From Thermodesulfobacteriota bacterium (GTDB taxonomy: Bacteria; Desulfobacterota; DSM-4660; Desulfatiglandales; HGW-15): a DNA stretch of 64,000 bases. Numbering within the stretch: the first letter of the stretch is position 1; each line of letters opens with the position of its first letter. Positions 7,719 through 34,606 of this stretch are shown piece by piece. The DNA lies in contig JBHPCX010000006.1 of the NCBI GenBank assembly GCA_042573485.1, forward strand, positions 255-64,254. The letters run 5' to 3'. The translations under genes were made by a program, and so were the position numbers. A model generated the notes under the pieces. It ran no database searches. It was not told where the DNA came from and was given only the letters and a program-made list of their open reading frames with translations.

Positions 7719-9185
7719 ATGGCTGAATATGATTTTGATATCGGGGTAATAGGAGGGGGCGCCGCGGGGCTGACAGTATCAGCCGGGTCATCCCAGTTCG
7801 GAGCAAAAACTCTTCTTGTTGAAAAGGAAAAAATCCTTGGCGGTGACTGCCTGCATTACGGGTGCGTCCCCAGTAAAACACTCATAAAATCAGCAAAAGT
7901 CTACCACCTGCTCAAAAACACGCTTAAGTACGGCTTGCCGGAGATTAAAGTGCCGCCGGTCGAATACAGTAAAATTGGTGAAAGAATAAAAAGCGTTATC
8001 GATACTATTCAAAAACATGACTCCGAGGATAGGTTCTGTTCCCTTGGCGTCCAGGTAGTCTACGGTCTTCCGTCATTTCTGGATTCCCATACCATTGAAC
8101 TCGAAGGAAAAAGATATAGCGCTAAAAAATGGGTAATAGCCACCGGATCATCTCCCGCTATACCGAAGCTGAATGGCCTTGAAACCATACCATTTATCAC
8201 CAACAAGGAAATTTATTCACTGAGTGAATTGCCGGAAGAAATTATAATTCTCGGTGCCGGACCAATTGCCGTGGAGATGGCCCAGGCCTTCTGCCGCCTG
8301 GGAAGTAAGGTCATTGTTATTCAAAGGAGCGGTCAGATATTAAGTAAAGAAGATAAAGATATGGCAGATACCGTTATGGATATCCTTGCCTCGGAAGGAG
8401 TTGAGTTTTATCTGAATTCTTCTGTTCTAAATGTAAACAGGATAGGTAATGAGGTTGAGATAACTATAAAGAATAAGGATGGTGAAGAAAGTAAACTAAA
8501 GGCGGAAAAACTTCTTGTAGCTATGGGAAGGTCTCCCAACCTTGATGGACTTAAACTGGAAAAAGCCGGAGTTGAGTATGATAAAAAAGGAGTAAAAGTA
8601 GACAGCCGTTTGAGGACTTCCCGGAAGCATATTTACGCGGCAGGTGACGTTACAGGAAAATACCAGTTCACCCATGCTGCCGGCTATGAGGGCAGTATTG
8701 TCATAAGTAACGCGATTTTCCATCTTCCAAGAAAAACCGATTACGCCTTTCTACCCTGGTGCACATACACTGACCCTGAACTGGCCAGTATAGGCTTAAA
8801 TGAAAAACGGGCGGGTGACGCCGGTATTAAATACAGTGTATGGACGGAAGAATTTAAAAATAATGACAGGAGTCTTGCCGAGGGAGAAGAATCGGGCAGG
8901 ATCAAGATGATTCTCGATGAGAAGGAAAAACCAATCGGTGTACAAATTCTGGGTCAAAACGGTGGTGATCTAATAGGAGAATGGGTGGCGGTATTAAACA
9001 GTAAAATGAAGCTTATGAACCTCGGTTCAGCAGTACACCCATACCCTACACTGGTAGAGATCAATAAACGTGTCGCGGGAAATTTTCTTTCAACCAAATT
9101 GTTTTCTAAAAAAGTTCAAAAGGGGTTAAAATTCATCTTTCACCTCAAGGGAAGGGCCTGCGAACCCGGGGGTGAATATAGATGA
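7719..9185 (+). CDS. Dihydrolipoamide dehydrogenase/mercuric-reductase-like flavoprotein disulfide reductase
   Basis: GGGAAG, GGDCLHYGCVPSK redox disulfide, ATGS, AAGD, HPYPT. No NmerA domain and no C-terminal Cys-Cys pair. Confidence 0.88.
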   Translation: MAEYDFDIGVIGGGAAGLTVSAGSSQFGAKTLLVEKEKILGGDCLHYGCVPSKTLIKSAKVYHLLKNTLKYGLPEIKVPPVEYSKIGERIKSVIDTIQKHDSEDRFCSLGVQVVYGLPSFLDSHTIELEGKRYSAKKWVIATGSSPAIPKLNGLETIPFITNKEIYSLSELPEEIIILGAGPIAVEMAQAFCRLGSKVIVIQRSGQILSKEDKDMADTVMDILASEGVEFYLNSSVLNVNRIGNEVEITIKNKDGEESKLKAEKLLVAMGRSPNLDGLKLEKAGVEYDKKGVKVDSRLRTSRKHIYAAGDVTGKYQFTHAAGYEGSIVISNAIFHLPRKTDYAFLPWCTYTDPELASIGLNEKRAGDAGIKYSVWTEEFKNNDRSLAEGEESGRIKMILDEKEKPIGVQILGQNGGDLIGEWVAVLNSKMKLMNLGSAVHPYPTLVEINKRVAGNFLSTKLFSKKVQKGLKFIFHLKGRACEPGGEYR

Positions 9186-9886
9186 TCGGGGAGAAACCTC
9201 CCATGTCAGGTGAATCAAACAGAAAAAGAGCTGCCTTAAAGGCCTTTATTTTTCTCCTTTTCATTATTGCATCTATTACTGTTATTAAGTTTTCACCTTT
9301 AAAAGAATACATTACAATAGATTTCCTCAGTGATTGTATTGACAGGGCGGGTATCTGGGCGCCTGTGGTGTATATTCTTGTATATTCCATCGGTGTATGC
9401 CTTTTTCTGCCTGGAACTCTCCTGACTTTAATAGGCGCGGCAATATTCGGACCCTATTACGGATTCCTGTATGTATGGATCGGCGCGATGCTTGGTGCGA
9501 CAGGAGCTTTTTTTATCGGCAGGACTCTGGGCAGAGAATTCGCGGCTTCAATGATTGGTGATAAATTACAGAAATATGATGACGCCATCGAGCGAAACGG
9601 GTTCGCGGCAGTATTATACCTGAGACTCGTATATTTCCCTTTTACACCCATGAATTTTGGAATGGGACTTACCAGGGTAAGGTTCCTTGATTATTTTTTT
9701 GGTACAGGGATCGGCATTATTGTCGGAACATTCGTTTTCACATTTTTTTTCGGCTCTTTAAAGGAAGTATGGGCATCAGGTGACTGGAGTCAGATAATAT
9801 CTCTGAAGGTATTCGGCGCGCTTTCCCTGTTTATTTTTTCTTTCTTTATCCCGAAAATAGTGAAGAAAATCAGGAAAGAGGATTAA
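9182..9886 (+). CDS. TVP38/TMEM64 (DedA/SNARE-associated) membrane protein
   Basis: LPGTLLTLIGAAIFG, FFIGRTLGR, LRLVYFPF..MNFGMGLT. ATGA overlap with the upstream gene. Confidence 0.88.
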   Translation: MIGEKPPMSGESNRKRAALKAFIFLLFIIASITVIKFSPLKEYITIDFLSDCIDRAGIWAPVVYILVYSIGVCLFLPGTLLTLIGAAIFGPYYGFLYVWIGAMLGATGAFFIGRTLGREFAASMIGDKLQKYDDAIERNGFAAVLYLRLVYFPFTPMNFGMGLTRVRFLDYFFGTGIGIIVGTFVFTFFFGSLKEVWASGDWSQIISLKVFGALSLFIFSFFIPKIVKKIRKED

Positions 9887-17763: not shown

Positions 17764-18033
17764 ATGTCAATATTTATCTATATATTAAGATTGAAATCCG
17801 GGAACATTTATATAGGGTCAACTACTAACCTGGAGAACCGCTATGCTGAGCATATTAAGGGTACAGCAAGTAGAATGACAAAGCTGGACCCACCTGTCAG
17901 GATAGCATACACTGAAACATACGAAACTCAGCTTGAAGCCCGACAGCGCGAAGCCCAAATAAAACGGTGGTCACGGGCAAAAAAGGAAGCATTAATATCT
18001 AAGAATATGAGCAAACTAAAAAGCCTGAAGTAA
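17764..18033 (+). CDS. Stand-alone GIY-YIG nuclease (UPF0213/YhbQ-like)
   Basis: FIYILR...IYIGSTTNLENRYAEH...ARQREAQIKRWSRAKKEALI. Confidence 0.9.
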   Translation: MSIFIYILRLKSGNIYIGSTTNLENRYAEHIKGTASRMTKLDPPVRIAYTETYETQLEARQREAQIKRWSRAKKEALISKNMSKLKSLK

Positions 18034-24163: not shown

Positions 24164-24994
24164 TCAAAAAACTTTTTCAAGCAAACCTTTCGCATCAGAC
24201 CTGCACCTGGTACAGTGGTGCATCTGGGGTACAAATGCCCCGGCAGTTTTTCTCAATTTATGCATGATTTTTTTGCCGGGTGGTTGGACGTTTTCCATGT
24301 CCGTACCTTTAACAGGAATAACCGGGATAAAGTTCATTAAGTCAACACCCAGACTGCCCATCTTCCCGGCAAGGAAAATGAGATGATCTTCATTGATTCC
24401 CGGGATAACGACAGAATTCACTTTAACTGTGAAGTTATTGCTCTTTAAAATTGATATTGCTTCAAGCTGCCTTTCAATAAGTGTTCCGGCAGCCTCGATA
24501 CTTTTCAATTTGATGCCGTCCATCTTGACCCATTTATATATATGCGCGCCCATAACCGGATCAATGCAGTTTACTGTTATGGTTACATACCTCACATTTA
24601 AATCAGAGAGCTGCCTAATATAGTCCTTAATATTTAATCCGTTTGTGGATACACACAGGGATATTCCACTGTTTTTAGTCCGGATTAGCTCAAAAGTCTT
24701 CAAAGTAAGCTCAGGTTTACTGAAGGCGTCACCGGGACCGGCAATTCCGGCAACTGAAATAAAAGGCATCTTTTGTAGTGTTCTTTCAAAGTGGTTAAAT
24801 GCTTGTTCCGGGCTTATCACTCCCTTTGTCACACCCGGCCTGTTTTCATGCAGGCAGTCATAGTCCCTTCTGCAGTAGGCACACTGGATATTACAGGCAG
24901 GGGCCACCGGGAGATGTATCCTGCCGTATTTGTTTTTTGCCTCTGAAAAAAAACAGGGGTGATGATTTGCTTTTGTCTGGAATTTATTGAACAT
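24164..24994 (-). CDS. nifB: NifB-family radical SAM carbide synthase, stand-alone (no NifX domain)
   Basis: All six NifB signature motifs: HPC, CNIQCAYC (CxxxCxxC), ENRP, AGPG, TITVN and CTRCRSDAKG. Confidence 0.88.
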   Translation of the reverse strand: MFNKFQTKANHHPCFFSEAKNKYGRIHLPVAPACNIQCAYCRRDYDCLHENRPGVTKGVISPEQAFNHFERTLQKMPFISVAGIAGPGDAFSKPELTLKTFELIRTKNSGISLCVSTNGLNIKDYIRQLSDLNVRYVTITVNCIDPVMGAHIYKWVKMDGIKLKSIEAAGTLIERQLEAISILKSNNFTVKVNSVVIPGINEDHLIFLAGKMGSLGVDLMNFIPVIPVKGTDMENVQPPGKKIMHKLRKTAGAFVPQMHHCTRCRSDAKGLLEKVF

Positions 24995-25005
24995 TTTATT
25001 TACCT

Positions 25006-25794
25006 TCAGGGGCGACCAATCTTTATGGCATCCCGGGGGCAGGCTTCTAAGCATTCACAGCAATTTGTACAATTTGACTCAGCAGGGAGTGTTCCCATGC
25101 AACAGATTTCAAGGCATTTATTACAGCCATCGCATGCTTCTGTTTTATATACCTTGAAAAGAGAAATTGGTTTTAATAGATCGAGTAGTCCGCCAGCCGG
25201 GCACGCAAATCTGCACCACATATTGGAGATTAGCAGGCACAGGACCAGGAACCCAAGTACGATGAATGTCCTTATCAGCCAGAGCATGTTGGCGTGTTCA
25301 AAGGTAAGGTATACTGAGTTGAAAAAATCACCTGCGCGTATTGGTATAGCTTCCCTGGGTTGACCTATGATGAAGTAGGCATAAAGGGAGAGTATGAGTG
25401 CCAGGTATTTAAAGTATGGTAAAATCCTGTTAAAATCGTTTTTTACTTTCAGTTTTAGAGGGGAGAGTATTCCGCATAACTGATTGATAAGTCCCCCGGG
25501 ACATGCCCAGCCGCAAAATGCCCTTCCGAATAAAATAATTGAAAGTGGTAGCAGCAGCCAGAATCCCCAGAACATTGTAACCAATCTGCCGTGACATGTA
25601 ATGACAGGACAATTCTGGCAACTCACATAGGGCACAATGAACGGGCAGCGGAAAATGCCGTAAAATGACCATTGGCCCATTATGATCAGGAATGCCACCT
25701 GGATTAGCCTTCTCCACCAGGTCAATAACTTCAATTTAGATTTTTTGTCAGTTAATATCTCTTCCTGTATTACTATCCGGCCAGTGTCAGACAT
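25006..25794 (-). CDS. NapH/MauN-like membrane protein with 4Fe-4S ferredoxin domain
   Basis: Several TM helices; GRAFCGWACP and WCRFACP (CxxxCP); two CxxCxxCxxxC motifs; extra N-terminal CP...CQNCP...C. Confidence 0.82.
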   Translation of the reverse strand: MSDTGRIVIQEEILTDKKSKLKLLTWWRRLIQVAFLIIMGQWSFYGIFRCPFIVPYVSCQNCPVITCHGRLVTMFWGFWLLLPLSIILFGRAFCGWACPGGLINQLCGILSPLKLKVKNDFNRILPYFKYLALILSLYAYFIIGQPREAIPIRAGDFFNSVYLTFEHANMLWLIRTFIVLGFLVLCLLISNMWCRFACPAGGLLDLLKPISLFKVYKTEACDGCNKCLEICCMGTLPAESNCTNCCECLEACPRDAIKIGRP

Positions 25795-26656
25795 CCTTTA
25801 CTCCCAGTTTTTCTGCCATCTCTCTACCCTTATCAGATATGGCAGGGATGAAACCAGCCTTCAGGAAAAAGCTCTGGCCTTTATCACTTCGAATAAAATC
25901 AATGTAATGGGCTGCCAGCTTCGGATCTTTCGCGTGTTTCATTATGCCGATTGTGAATGTAAGAGGCGGGGGAGGAAAGAATTTTTCAGGTATTGGAATT
26001 ATTTCTGATTTATCTTTGAACAGCGGCATCCTTGTCAATCTTTTTTCTACGACAGACACTTCACCTTTCCCGTCTACAAGGTCTTCCATGGCCCTTTGCA
26101 CACAGCTGCTTTTTATAACACAGTTTTCCATCGCTTTTTCAGCAACTCCCGCATTTTTCAGGAGCAGGGTTACGGCGCCCCCTCCGGGGGCGGATGCTTC
26201 AGGAGAAAGAATTACCTTTATTCCCGGTTTTGCAATGTCCTGAATCTTTGTGATTCCGGCCGGATTGCCCTTTGGAGTTACAAGTACATAGCTTGTAAAA
26301 CAGAGGGGTTTAAATGAAACCATTTTTCCGGCTTTCCGGAGTTTTTTTGCAAGGGCGAGTACTCTGCCTGCGAATATTTCTGTGCTGGCGCTGCCTAAAA
26401 GTGATTTGCCGAGTGCTGCAGCAAAGGCGCCAGTATAGGCAATATCGACACCTGTTTCTTCCTTGAACACCTCGTTGGCAGGGATAAAGGCTTCCGCCAG
26501 TCCTCCGCATGACCAGACCTGAAGTGTCATTTGTGTGGATTGTTCGCCCGCTGAAAGACCGGAGGGTAAGGCGGTGCCAATCGCTGCTCCTGCTGCAACG
26601 GACAGGAAAGCCCTGCGGCTGTATTTGTTTTCTTTTTCCCCTTCATATTCTTTCAT
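25787..26656 (-). CDS. Tat-exported ModA-fold (SBP_bac_11-like) solute-binding protein
   Basis: SRRAFL Tat motif; PKGNPAGITKIQDIAKPG and FIRSDKGQSFFLKAGF are ModA-like; WSCGGLAEA replaces the usual AAASL. Confidence 0.78.
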   Translation of the reverse strand: MKEYEGEKENKYSRRAFLSVAAGAAIGTALPSGLSAGEQSTQMTLQVWSCGGLAEAFIPANEVFKEETGVDIAYTGAFAAALGKSLLGSASTEIFAGRVLALAKKLRKAGKMVSFKPLCFTSYVLVTPKGNPAGITKIQDIAKPGIKVILSPEASAPGGGAVTLLLKNAGVAEKAMENCVIKSSCVQRAMEDLVDGKGEVSVVEKRLTRMPLFKDKSEIIPIPEKFFPPPPLTFTIGIMKHAKDPKLAAHYIDFIRSDKGQSFFLKAGFIPAISDKGREMAEKLGVKDV

Positions 26657-26781
26657 GTGATTACTCCAATTTTTTAATTACTCATACTATGGCGTTCAAA
26701 AACAAGTCAAACTGGAATAATCGATAAAACTTTTGAGATAATTCGGAAAAACCAATAGGTGAGAAATGAAAGATATGCTGA

Positions 26782-27348
26782 TTATTTGCTTATCTGCAGC
26801 TTTTGTCCTACTTGTATTACTGATTGGGGGCCAATATTATTCAACCTGCGTAACTCATTCACGGGTATATTATAATTTACACTTATTCTGTACAGGGTTT
26901 CCCCCGGGGCCACTACATGATATTTTTCGATATCTGAAACTGGTTCCTTCGTCACTTCTTTTATCTTAACAGGTTCTTTTATTGCTTCACTGTGAAGAGT
27001 GTCGTCCACTTTTTTACTGTTCTTCATATCAATAAGGGCTTCAAGACTGTCTATCCTATTCATCAAAGATATTTCCAGTCTTGTTCTTTGTTCATCGATA
27101 ATTGAATTACTTTTATTAACACTCTCTATCCTGGTAAGCCTGTCTTCAATCTTCAACAACCTGGAATCCAGTGAGTAAAGACTTTTTCTAATGGATTTTT
27201 CTGATTTTAAGAGGAGGTAGAAGGACAGTCCGATCAGGCATATGACAATAACAGCAAGAGATGCCGCGATAATAGAATACCGCCTGCTCCCTGAATGTGA
27301 TTCAGGAGCGGTGCCTTTAATCTCTTTTGCCATCTCCAGATTTCTCAT
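26782..27348 (-). CDS. Membrane-anchored coiled-coil LysM protein
   Basis: One TM helix, coiled coil, YHVVAPGETLYRIS..Y....LRRLNNI....IQVGQKL. Confidence 0.88.
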   Translation of the reverse strand: MRNLEMAKEIKGTAPESHSGSRRYSIIAASLAVIVICLIGLSFYLLLKSEKSIRKSLYSLDSRLLKIEDRLTRIESVNKSNSIIDEQRTRLEISLMNRIDSLEALIDMKNSKKVDDTLHSEAIKEPVKIKEVTKEPVSDIEKYHVVAPGETLYRISVNYNIPVNELRRLNNIGPQSVIQVGQKLQISK

Positions 27349-32254: not shown

Positions 32255-32701
32255 ATAAAATGAGTCTTATATTAATTAGTACAGCGGTGTCAACTTATTT
32301 TCATTATCAAATTATCACTCCCAGACACAGCAGTCAGCTGCTTGTCGCGCCGAAGCCTCGGCGAAGGCGGATCAGCCTTCAGCCTTCAGCTAAACCGATA
32401 TTATAAGAACTTCACTGCTTGAGAACATTATATCCTCACAATTTACAGAAAACAGCTTTGAGCTAAAATAGGCAAACTTTTTATTTTCCTGTGATCAGGA
32501 TATTTGGGTTGTTATGAATGACTCTACCTATTTCATGAACTGTAAGTTTTTACCCAAATGTGCCCAAGGCAAAAATGGGTAAAAATTCCAATTAGTCATA
32601 TTTATTAAATACGCATGATAAACTATGCAGACATGAATATTTTAATGTGCACTTAGGTGCCAGCAATTATAAATTTGATGGTAAATCAAGCAGATATCCT
32701 G

Positions 32702-32717
32702 TGGCATGTGCATTGCA
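32702..32717 (+). promoter_or_regulatory. Sigma-54 promoter of the cyclase gene
   Basis: TGGCATGTGCATTGCA = TGGCAY-N5-TTGCA, 35 bp before ATG 32753. Inverted repeat TTTTTACCCA/TGGGTAAAAA at ~32547-32585 is a candidate enhancer. Confidence 0.75.
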
Positions 32718-32752
32718 CTATTATCTTTTCATCAACTTTAACAGGGACAGCA

Positions 32753-34606
32753 ATGAGTAAAGCAGACTGTATCAGTAACAGGAACATCCTGATTATAGCC
32801 AAGTATCTTTTAAGCAGGAAAGGCAGCTATGAATCATTGTTTCATAACCTGCCATACCCTCATGAAAGATTCGACACTCCTGAAAACTTTTTTATGAATG
32901 AGGATGAATGGACTACCTTTGATAATTTTCACAGGATAATCAGGCGGGCCAGGGACCTGTCAGGTGAGGAGCATTTCTTTTTCAAATGCGGATCTTCGCC
33001 GCAAATTCTCCGTTCATGGGGCAGGTTCGGCTACATGAAGCAATATTCGGCAGGCCCGGATGATGGCTATAAAAGACTGCCTTTTTTTAACAGTAATATT
33101 AATGATACCAAGGAAATAGATATAGTTCTTCCGCCTGCGTACGATAAATCCATTAAAAAAGTAAGAGTAATACTTAGAGTGAAATATCATGATGATATTG
33201 ATGTGGAAAAGGAATATATAGTCGATTCATACCGCAGAGGTATTATCTCATCAATTCCAACAGTATGGTCACTGCCCCCTGCCGATATCAAGCAGCCCCT
33301 GAATCCCTACGATCCAGTAAAACTATTTAATAATGATCCTGAATTTAAGGACTACAGGTTGGGTGCAAGGATGGAAAAGGATTTTTTTACAATATATGAT
33401 CAGTTTAATGACGTCAGGAAGACAGCCGGAAGAAGGGTGAAACTTGAGCCGGAAATTATAAACGGTAAAAAAATATTTATGGGGAAATATTCTGAAGCGG
33501 ACACCGGAATTGACGATAGATCTGATGCCATTGCTGTTCTTATGACTGAAACAGTAAAGATCAAAGATAGAATTCTCTTCAGAAAGGGAGAGATTTTTAA
33601 GGCTCCCTACTTTATTCTCAATGTTACCTATGTGAAATTTTCATGGTTCAGGCGAATCTTCAGCCTTTTTAAAAATATCGGGAGGAAAGCAGATCCTGAA
33701 AAACAGTTGATAGATACTATTAATGAGCTGCGAATTAACATAAAAGCAAGAAATAAGGCATATGAGGATTTGAAATCAGCACATGAGGAGCTTGCGGAAG
33801 CCAAGGAAAGGCTTGAAGAATACAGCATCAATCTGGAGCAGAAAGTTGATGAGAGGACAATAGAATTAAGAAAGGCACGGGAAGATTTGCTGCAGCTCAA
33901 CGGGGATCTTGAGAAGAAGTTAAAAAAACAGTTAAAAGAACTTAATAAATATAACAGCCTGAGACGATATCTGTCACCAAAGGTGGCTGAAAAAATATTG
34001 TCAAACGGAAACACAATTTGGGCTGCACCCAGAAGAAAAATGATGACTGTTATGTTCACAGATATCAGGAATTTTTCAACATTTACTGATATTCTTGAAC
34101 CTGAGGAACTATTCAATCTTCTCCATAATTATATTTCAGAAATGACCAGAATCGTATATGATTTTGACGGCACACTGAATAAAATAATCGGTGACGGGAT
34201 GCTTGTTTTTCTGGGTGATCCTGTCCCGATGGATGACCATGCAAAAAGGGCGGTATTGATGGGTCTGGAAATGCAGAAAAAAACAGATGAACTAAAAAAA
34301 GACTGGCAATATTTCGGCCATGATTTTGGTGTGGGTATCGGTATAAATACCGGTTATATGACTGTAGGGAATATCGGTTCTGACATGCAGCTAGATTACA
34401 CAGTAATAGGAAACCAGGTAAATGTTGCATCGAGACTCGAATCAAAGGCAAAAGCAGGGGAGATACTTGTAAGCCAGAGGACCTTCAGTAATGTAAGTAA
34501 TATTGTAGAAGCTGATGAGATCGGAGAAATCACTGTAAAGGGGATACATAATCCTGTCTTGACATATAATGTGCTGGGTTTAATAAATTCACGAAACTCT
34601 GTATAG
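32753..34606 (+). CDS. Class III adenylate cyclase with an unrecognised N-terminal domain and a coiled coil
   Basis: MFTDIRNFS, NKIIGDGML, GIGINTG, GNIGS..LDYTVIGNQVNVASRLE. The Lys and Asp specificity residues indicate ATP. Confidence 0.9.
   Translation: MSKADCISNRNILIIAKYLLSRKGSYESLFHNLPYPHERFDTPENFFMNEDEWTTFDNFHRIIRRARDLSGEEHFFFKCGSSPQILRSWGRFGYMKQYSAGPDDGYKRLPFFNSNINDTKEIDIVLPPAYDKSIKKVRVILRVKYHDDIDVEKEYIVDSYRRGIISSIPTVWSLPPADIKQPLNPYDPVKLFNNDPEFKDYRLGARMEKDFFTIYDQFNDVRKTAGRRVKLEPEIINGKKIFMGKYSEADTGIDDRSDAIAVLMTETVKIKDRILFRKGEIFKAPYFILNVTYVKFSWFRRIFSLFKNIGRKADPEKQLIDTINELRINIKARNKAYEDLKSAHEELAEAKERLEEYSINLEQKVDERTIELRKAREDLLQLNGDLEKKLKKQLKELNKYNSLRRYLSPKVAEKILSNGNTIWAAPRRKMMTVMFTDIRNFSTFTDILEPEELFNLLHNYISEMTRIVYDFDGTLNKIIGDGMLVFLGDPVPMDDHAKRAVLMGLEMQKKTDELKKDWQYFGHDFGVGIGINTGYMTVGNIGSDMQLDYTVIGNQVNVASRLESKAKAGEILVSQRTFSNVSNIVEADEIGEITVKGIHNPVLTYNVLGLINSRNSV

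Follow-up and report, generated by a model that had tools for sequence, protein, structure and literature searches.

This report concerns a window of 64 kb (the whole stretch of DNA analysed) from contig JBHPCX010000006.1 of a Thermodesulfobacteriota bacterium, and within it three open reading frames (ORFs) that lie head to tail on the minus strand at window positions 24164-26656, as read from the ORF list of the window. The first (25787..26656, 289 residues) encodes a binding protein with a twin-arginine translocation (Tat) signal, assigned to PF13531 and matching the fold of ModA, with invariant cysteines and an invariant RR-x-F motif. The second (25006..25794, 262 residues) encodes a membrane ferredoxin resembling NapH and MauN, with a Fer4_5 match, four predicted transmembrane helices and 16 invariant cysteines. 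The third (24164..24994, 276 residues from the ATG at 24994) encodes a radical S-adenosylmethionine (SAM) protein that corresponds to the NifB core without the NifX domain, as judged from TIGR01290 and the solved structure 6y1x. The first two genes are referred to below as the pair and all three as the trio. In nitrogenase cofactor assembly the product of NifB passes by way of NifX and NifEN to NifDK, and MarB serves methylthio-alkane reductase.

The original prediction described the three genes as coupled by an 8-bp overlap and an 11-bp gap. The coordinates confirm the 8-bp overlap of the binding-protein and ferredoxin genes, and the 11 bases between the ferredoxin stop codon and the NifB start hold if translation begins at the ATG at 24994; the longest NifB ORF (24164-25054), which uses an alternative upstream ATG at 25054, would overlap the ferredoxin gene by 49 bp. 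The upstream intergenic region (26657..26810, minus strand) is the likely operon start, with the ribosome binding site of the first gene (GGAG, 7 nt 5' of the binding-protein ATG) and one weak promoter-like site, a sigma-70-like match at 26809-26781 (9/12 positions, scanned in the upstream region only), which marks a position and is not evidence. Such matches number 7 upstream of the trio against a mean of 9.2 in shuffled sequences, which is no enrichment, and the promoter-like site was therefore rejected as a mark of the operon start. The flanking genes of the window encode a LysM protein, a pseudopilin-like protein, a thioesterase, an S46 peptidase, an EamA transporter and an adenylate cyclase; since these are unrelated to the trio, it appears in the window as a stand-alone operon. 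Among the sequencing runs listed for the sequence there was no RNA run, and two DNA runs contained small shares of its words.

Sequence and fold of the three proteins

By sequence the radical SAM protein corresponds to a NifB core, and its cluster synthesis is putative. It scores 63.3 bits with Radical_SAM and 287.8 bits with TIGR01290 (model positions 5-276 of 441), below the equivalog cut-off of 343.65 because the NifX-like domain is absent. Residues 9-272 align to solved NifB structures (6y1x, E 1.4e-66; 7bi7, 3.5e-57; 7jmb and 7jma, approximately 4e-57) across the HPC, CxxxCxxC, AGPG, TxTxN and C-terminal CxxCRxDA stretches, so that the likeness to characterised NifB runs end to end. Nine residues (H12, C14, H27, C34, C38, C41, C114, C261 and C264) are invariant in 37/37 rows of the family, and the earlier claim of a kept NifB motif set is borne out for these residues and aligned stretches. 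Besides the radical SAM motif CxxxCxxC, the N-terminal HPC and C-terminal CxxC positions are the presumed ligands of the two auxiliary clusters. Compared with the NifB of nitrogenase assembly, the window protein keeps every cysteine and histidine compared and shares approximately half of its residues with solved archaeal NifB across the whole core, but it lacks the NifX domain, its genome holds no PF00148 gene, and it is encoded next to a binding protein that is exported and a ferredoxin of the membrane. According to bioRxiv 10.1101/2023.10.20.563283, the NifX domain is optional in NifB, and NifB without it is typical of the archaeal setting associated with methyl-coenzyme M reductase (MCR).

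The binding protein is, on sequence and predicted fold, ModA-like but not ModA. It matches SBP_bac_11 (PF13531) with 146.9 bits, and its AlphaFold model (predicted local distance difference test, pLDDT, 84.8; residues 1-40 disordered) has ModA structures as its best Foldseek matches (TM-score by target 0.75-0.87, E approximately 1e-18, identity 14-20%), with the sulfate-binding protein 1sbp also among them. The protein thus shares its class II binding-protein fold and Pfam family with ModA, WtpA and Sbp, but it differs from them in its low identity, in a score of 47.5 bits with the modA model TIGR01256 that stays under the cut-off of 62.5, in the Tat signal, in cysteines at two anion loops in place of the oxyanion-binding residues, and in the lack of linkage to modB and modC, neither of which adjoins it. 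Of the four cysteines noted in the original prediction, C50 (in WSCGG), C119 (PLCF) and C185 (SCVQR) are invariant in 65/65 rows and the fourth, C179, is present in only 11/65. A profile alignment to solved ModA assigns C50 to the first of the anion-binding loops and C185 to the fourth, which reads 'geNV' in ModA, and this suggests that the two would lie on opposite lobes at the ligand site, facing each other. A plain binder with non-conserved cysteines, the case that the original prediction had named against itself, does not fit these three invariant positions, two of them in anion loops. The SRRAFL motif at residues 13-18 is followed by a hydrophobic stretch as in Tat substrates; R14, R15 and F17 are invariant in 47/47 rows, and export is predicted from this pattern.

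A family search against 1.84 billion representatives returned approximately six full-length clusters (50% identity) above 330 bits, remote relatives at approximately 200 bits and ordinary ModA-like proteins below approximately 150 bits, and the family with three cysteines is therefore compact. Source databases label the binding protein 'molybdate transport substrate-binding protein', and the Atlas gives generic names only.

The membrane protein is, by the same kind of evidence, NapH-like but not NapH. It matches Fer4_5 with 41.5 bits and reaches 56.8 bits with the NapH/MauN model TIGR02163 (cut-off 213.05) and 49 bits with the NapH equivalog model (cut-off 234). Four transmembrane helices are predicted from hydropathy, and lysine and arginine counts place the N-terminus, both CxxxCP motifs (C94/C98 and C194/C198) and the C-terminal tail with its two 4Fe-4S motifs inside, with the loop between the first two helices (residues 49-70) outside. 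This loop holds four cysteines, C50, C59, C62 and C67, and together with those of the CxxxCP and 4Fe-4S motifs they make up 16 cysteines that are all invariant in 48/48 rows. Ferredoxin paralogues in related genomes align only from approximately residue 80 onward, so the four-cysteine loop marks the ferredoxin family of the trio; a profile search against solved structures gave matches confined to ferredoxin domains. The likeness to NapGH and NosR-NosZ lies in the four helices, the two CxxxCP motifs, the two C-terminal 4Fe-4S sites and a Tat-signal partner encoded directly upstream. The differences are the score far under the family cut-off, the extra outer loop, and the nature of the partner, which is a ModA-fold protein where those systems have a ferredoxin or a copper enzyme; in the vicinity of the trio, no nap, nos or mau genes were found.

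Gene neighbourhoods and co-occurrence with NifB

In a collection with one genome per species, 498 pattern matches were found, 287 of which encode a relative of the binding protein, and the best 80 loci were analysed (taxa are taken from record labels). The relatives occur in many orders of Thermodesulfobacteriota, in Acidobacteriota, a Zixibacteria-labelled metagenome-assembled genome, SAR324, Nitrospirota and Megasphaera cerevisiae, and protein databases add, by name, members from Campylobacter, Colibacter, Sporomusa and Anaerospora. The NapH-like gene directly follows the binding-protein gene in 74/74 loci with room for it, the contig ending too early in the other 6/80. NifB adjoins the pair in 51/69 decidable loci, 42 times downstream (counting three copies cut by contig ends and the truncated copy of genome G010) and nine times upstream (counting locus L137); 18 loci have the space for it on either side but no NifB, L061 has room downstream only, and four loci are undecidable. 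No fourth conserved gene was found among the 80 loci and no conserved permease next to the pair, and an ATP-binding cassette (ABC) ATPase lies within 6 kb in only 6/80. In the same genus (Desulfatiglandales), 5/10 other genomes hold the binding protein at 70-75% identity, with the ferredoxin adjacent in each, and three of these five (G004, G005 and G008) have the full trio. The original prediction would have been weakened if the trio were not conserved elsewhere; the neighbourhood survey found it conserved across several phyla, and chance adjacency of the three genes was rejected on these data.

Every decidable locus without an adjacent NifB lies in a genome that holds NifB elsewhere (18/18, or 18/19 when L061 is counted), and 16 of these 18 non-adjacent NifBs exceed the equivalog cut-off. 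All 19 genomes without an adjacent NifB have genes of PF00148, the family of NifD/K/E/N, Mar, Cfb and other nitrogenase-like proteins. The genomes with an adjacent NifB (49, since two of the 51 adjacent loci, the short contigs L073 and L079, are not counted) have PF00148 genes in 28 cases and none in 21; among the latter are two assembled as a single chromosome, those behind L116 (8.2 Mb) and L135 (4.0 Mb). Within the genus, G000, G005 and G008 have no PF00148 match, so that three nitrogenase-free genomes there keep the trio. An even sample of 301 genomes of the source phylum gave six with the binding protein, all six with NifB, compared with NifB in 65/295 of the others; only 6/71 NifB-positive genomes of this sample have the pair. 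In 301 genomes of the Megasphaera phylum two hold the binding protein, and one of the two has, in a genome of 1.8 Mb, the full trio beside a cysteine desulfurase and YeeE/YedE, with no PF00148 match. If 22% is taken as the chance of NifB, at least 18/19 has a probability of 2e-11, and the two-by-two table of adjacency and nitrogenase gives a Fisher p of 2.8e-4, both figures being overstated since kin are not independent. NifB is thus either adjacent or elsewhere in the genome and nitrogenase is present in only part of the carriers, from which it follows that the pair goes with NifB and not with nitrogenase. At the level of gene content, the comparison shows the trio to be a functional unit, one that requires the activity of NifB but can do without nitrogenase.

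The phylogenetic trees fit this picture. In the NifB tree (74 rows, a quick method with support only from the Shimodaira-Hasegawa-like approximate likelihood ratio test; nine duplicate fetches and one row of less than 250 residues left out), the NifBs of nif clusters fall into a single clade (support 99). Those adjacent on the downstream side are found in two clades, a main one with 35 members (support 88) and a second with five, from Geobacteraceae, Megasphaera, Syntrophales, Desulfomonilia and Syntrophaceae. The upstream-adjacent ones make up a clade of nine, joined with support 99 to NifBs from other families that lack NifX and are encoded beside a nitrogenase-like gene. The adjacent NifB of L127, a NifB-NifX protein of 439 residues, nests in the canonical clade. 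On these groupings the adjacent NifBs stem from at least three NifB lineages. In the binding-protein tree (65 rows) the second downstream group and the upstream group reappear as clades, with supports of 99 and 95, and the binding protein has therefore evolved in step with its NifB. Loci that lack an adjacent NifB are scattered in this tree (nine changes by parsimony, at least five forced by well-supported branches), so the dedicated NifB was lost several times, each time in a genome with another NifB, and it seems that a NifB of the nif-cluster type can take over from the adjacent one. Two members of the genus illustrate this state: in G010 (L039:1447-2271) the adjacent NifB is cut after approximately residue 178 and continues into an unrelated hydrophobic tail, in G003 (L041) it is absent, with a signal-peptidase-like gene on the other strand in its place, and both genomes possess a nif cluster with NifB-NifX.

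The source assembly (4.02 Mb, 236 contigs, 84% complete) bears on a sober alternative, in which the three genes are ordinary parts: a molybdate or tungstate binder, a stray NapH paralogue and a nifB left behind by a nif cluster that was lost or not assembled, neighbours by chance. The database label of the binding protein speaks for it, as does its being the only SBP_bac_11 protein found in the assembly, and at this completeness a nif cluster could have been missed. The original prediction had reported no nifHDKEN, mar or modBC genes in the window, and this extends to the whole 84%-complete assembly for PF00148, with 0 matches, and for modB, whose best match scores 35.4 bits against a cut-off of 182.6. 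With no PF00148 gene in the assembly, a nif or mar cluster lacking its own nifB, which could have accounted for the NifB of the trio, the sole NifB match present, was not found there. Five PF00142 matches considered as a NifH-like partner are short and partial (best 34.1 bits, model positions 1-44) and were rejected as NifH. Against the view of ordinary parts stand the sub-threshold modA score, the cysteines at the anion-binding positions and the missing modB; several phyla, moreover, share the arrangement, which occurs in two gene orders and draws on different lineages of NifB, and L116 and L135 are single-chromosome carriers without PF00148. We consider this explanation very improbable.

Other genes recur near the pair at low frequency: rhodanese (10/80 loci), a 2-hydroxyacyl-CoA dehydratase-like protein (9/80), a porin-like outer-membrane protein (9/80, five of them directly upstream on the same strand), YeeE/YedE (8/80), TusA (5/80) and cysteine desulfurase (4/80). 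In loci of Acidobacteriota and Negativicutes the trio has cysteine desulfurase and YeeE/YedE genes at its side, a sulfur supply close by that we count in favour of the module proposed below. The five upstream porin-like genes are L111:2842-4407, L114:3667-5145, L137:3698-5164, L110:1573-3075 and L120:4288-5856, and a porin-like representative from L063 matches Alginate_exp with 101 bits. Next to the Negativicutes trios (L133:3116-5886 and 8525-9670 in Megasphaera cerevisiae; L158:8884-11191 in G591) lie genes for a transporter of the YeeE/YedE type and for a class-V aminotransferase of the cysteine desulfurase type, to which the Megasphaera locus adds a Se/S-carrier-like protein and an AIRS-domain (SelD-type) protein; these flanks hint at sulfur or selenium trafficking.

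Several further observations were made in the course of the survey. In L108:463-2337 and in protein P0123 one open frame of 562-625 residues runs from NifB into the Tat motif and binding protein, and may be a true fusion or a lost stop codon. Genome G007 (96% complete) holds at a contig end (G007:C129:13475-13648, L019) the first 59 residues of a binding-protein orthologue at 53% identity; no NifB and no orthologous ferredoxin were found in that genome, and the partial orthologue is probably an assembly break. The closest trio is that of L135 (binding protein 77% and NifB 73% identical to those of the window), where ORF L135:2959-4809 begins like the adenylate cyclase ORF of the window (32657-34606); the Zixibacteria label of this record and its true kinship may not agree. 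Another orphan NifB cluster (L033-L037, from genomes G037, G040, G030, G025 and G033, which belong to the order of the source genome) contains a TonB-dependent receptor, a NifX-less NifB, a SAM methyltransferase of approximately 250 residues and a nitrogenase-like protein of the NifD/K type. Its NifB is 33-38% identical to that of the window and belongs to a lineage sister to the NifB found upstream of the binding protein, and no binding-protein orthologue was found in these genomes. Elsewhere in the window, at 17764-18033, an ORF of 89 residues has an N-terminus that resembles, by eye, the GIY-YIG nuclease motif.

A proposed NifB-dependent periplasmic module and its rivals

The explanation that we prefer, while holding it as tentative and a little short of probable, is that the three genes form one functional unit, a periplasmic redox module that depends on NifB and not on nitrogenase, with a mechanism that we infer as follows. 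In the cytoplasm NifB would fuse two 4Fe-4S units into a cluster of the [8Fe-9S-C] type, like NifB-co or the L-cluster, and this cluster would enter the cleft between the domains of the ModA-like protein once folded, where cysteines take the place of oxyanion-binding positions; C50 and C185 could be its two end ligands and C119, near the hinge, a possible third. The holo-protein would then be exported by Tat and, in the periplasm, would dock on the four-cysteine outer loop of the NapH-like protein, giving it access to electrons from quinol or cytoplasmic ferredoxin. The set of exported cofactor protein, membrane partner and maturase would follow the pattern of NapG/NapH or NosZ/NosR. The periplasmic substrate would be, at a guess, an anion that enters through an outer-membrane porin, and the cluster in the ModA-fold protein might act as a catalytic centre for such a small anion. 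A non-nitrogenase carbide-cluster or periplasmic metal/redox module had been proposed in the original prediction, and the constant company of NifB, either adjacent or in a nif cluster, supports a module that depends on NifB and not on nitrogenase. That the binding protein itself carries the NifB-made cluster is a narrower claim, suggested by the placement of its cysteines. In the fullest form of this proposal, the ModA-fold protein, receiving its cluster in the cytoplasm, leaving through Tat and connected to the membrane by its dedicated NapH-like partner, would be the third class of host for a NifB-made [8Fe-9S-C] cluster after the Nif family and McrC/Mmp7; it would also be the first periplasmic host and, among bacteria, the first that does not belong to the Nif family. 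We regard this as possible, with doubt outweighing confidence.

Several points weigh against the proposed module. Genome G059, behind L061, showed no NifB, its nif genes lying in pieces on short contigs. The binding-protein tree offers few independent pairs, four well supported and nine on all branches, and with a sign test p of 0.125-1 significance cannot be reached; the direction never runs against the pattern of NifB and nitrogenase, which therefore holds in every decidable case but does not amount to a proven correlation. The Pfam TAT_signal model matches residues 12-31 of the binding protein below its threshold (17 vs 22.7 bits), so that the Tat signal claimed earlier is backed by the invariant motif and not by the profile. 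The putative convergence of the three cysteines in the cleft rests on alignment to ModA structures, and the ModA cleft is sized for a small oxyanion, so an 8-Fe cluster would need it open. The four-cysteine loop is modelled at a pLDDT below 50, within a NapH-like model of 64.5 overall. Remote relatives of the binding protein keep C50 and C185, yet P0136 among them has a lipoprotein-type signal and P0156 lacks C119, which suggests that their cysteine pair can serve a function without cytoplasmic loading. The source genome is only 84% complete, and it has, on other contigs, four small NifX-like (PF02579) ORFs that could be real NifB-co acceptors. Among the NifX-like ORFs of the source genome (G000), two lie at C191:19736-21816 and one at C157:8671-8940, as possible cluster carriers, and those on C191 adjoin two MinD/ParA-type ATPase-like ORFs (292 and 295 residues) with partial NifH-family matches.

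The last points lead to the most serious competitor, in which the NifB product goes elsewhere, to the NapH-like ferredoxin or to an unlinked protein, for instance a NifX-like carrier of the kind of the four PF02579 ORFs, and the cysteines of the binding protein are redox thiols or a site for a soft metal, persulfide or selenotrisulfide, which the ferredoxin loop would hold in a reduced or oxidised state as a relay of the DsbB/VKOR or DsbD type. The outer loop does contain C59-x-x-C62 and two further invariant cysteines, and the remote relatives with a lipoprotein signal retain C50 and C185. The engineered double-cysteine ModA 3axf (A11C/R153C) is among the structural matches, a lead only, with positions that presumably neighbour C50 and C185. 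Rhodanese, TusA and YeeE/YedE lie nearby in some loci, and the Se/S-carrier and SelD-type proteins of Megasphaera belong to the same theme. A thiol relay, however, gives no reason for NifB in every genome or for the invariant twin-arginine motif, and a loop inserted by Sec or YidC cannot directly receive a cytoplasmic cluster. Nor do the CxxxCP and ferredoxin sites of such membrane proteins call for NifB, for canonical NapH, NosR and CcoG-type proteins are present in organisms without it. This explanation seems to us unlikely, while remaining the nearest contender.

A different direction of supply is conceivable as well, with the pair acting upstream of NifB by capturing and reducing a periplasmic sulfur, iron or molybdenum species (e.g., sulfite or thiosulfate) for cluster synthesis. 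The ninth sulfur of NifB-co can come from sulfite, the fold is one of oxyanion binders, with ModA and 1sbp among its matches, and both the sulfur-related neighbours (YeeE/YedE in 8/80, rhodanese in 10, TusA in five, cysteine desulfurase in four) and the porin-like gene beside the module (9/80 loci, five directly upstream on the same strand) would suit such a role. A feeder, however, would leave the NifB of the 21/49 PF00148-free genomes still without a client, it needs no Tat export, no permease is conserved beside the pair, and most diazotrophs do without the pair, which only 6/71 NifB-positive genomes of the phylum sample possess. This alternative is accordingly thought quite improbable, and the NifB-dependent redox module remains the preferred explanation.

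Relation to known systems and biological meaning

The nearest precedent for a NifB-type cluster outside nitrogenase is the MCR activation complex, where, according to PMC12176620, three [8Fe-9S-C] clusters serve electron transfer in McrC/Mmp7, one of them held by two terminal cysteines, with a third cysteine possibly at the belt; this archaeal case is the one use of the cluster reported outside the Nif family. The trio resembles it in using a NifX-less NifB, which is typical there, and in placing such a cluster, if the proposal holds, outside the nitrogenase family, but the archaeal complex is cytoplasmic and its host proteins are unrelated. McrC was found in 0/6 nitrogenase-free trio genomes tested (the source genome, with no PF04609 match in its assembly, and five of the 21). 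The candidate clients of the trio belong to SBP_bac_11 and Fer4_5 and have no homology to PF00148 or PF04609. Methylthio-alkane reductase also uses nitrogenase-type clusters but is itself a member of the Nif family (10.1101/2024.10.19.619033). No literature on NifB with a Tat-exported, binding-protein or NapH-like partner was found in open full text, a search that excludes subscription journals and closed supplements.

The trio points to a second use of the NifB-made cluster in bacteria, often without nitrogenase. If the proposed module is real, the carbide cluster gains a second bacterial role and a new protein scaffold. The module occurs in sulfate reducers, syntrophs, cable bacteria, Geobacteraceae, Acidobacteriota and Negativicutes and, by database names, in Campylobacter, and cultured carriers include Desulfocarbo indianensis, Megasphaera cerevisiae, Fundidesulfovibrio agrisoli and Desulfovibrio sp. 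DV, the first two of which (M. cerevisiae as strain DSM 20462) possess genes of the nitrogenase family. With three genes in 2.5 kb, it is a small system suited to the study of NifB-co hand-over, binding and export. It also accounts for the presence of nifB in genomes unable to fix nitrogen, which matters wherever nifB is used as a marker of diazotrophy.

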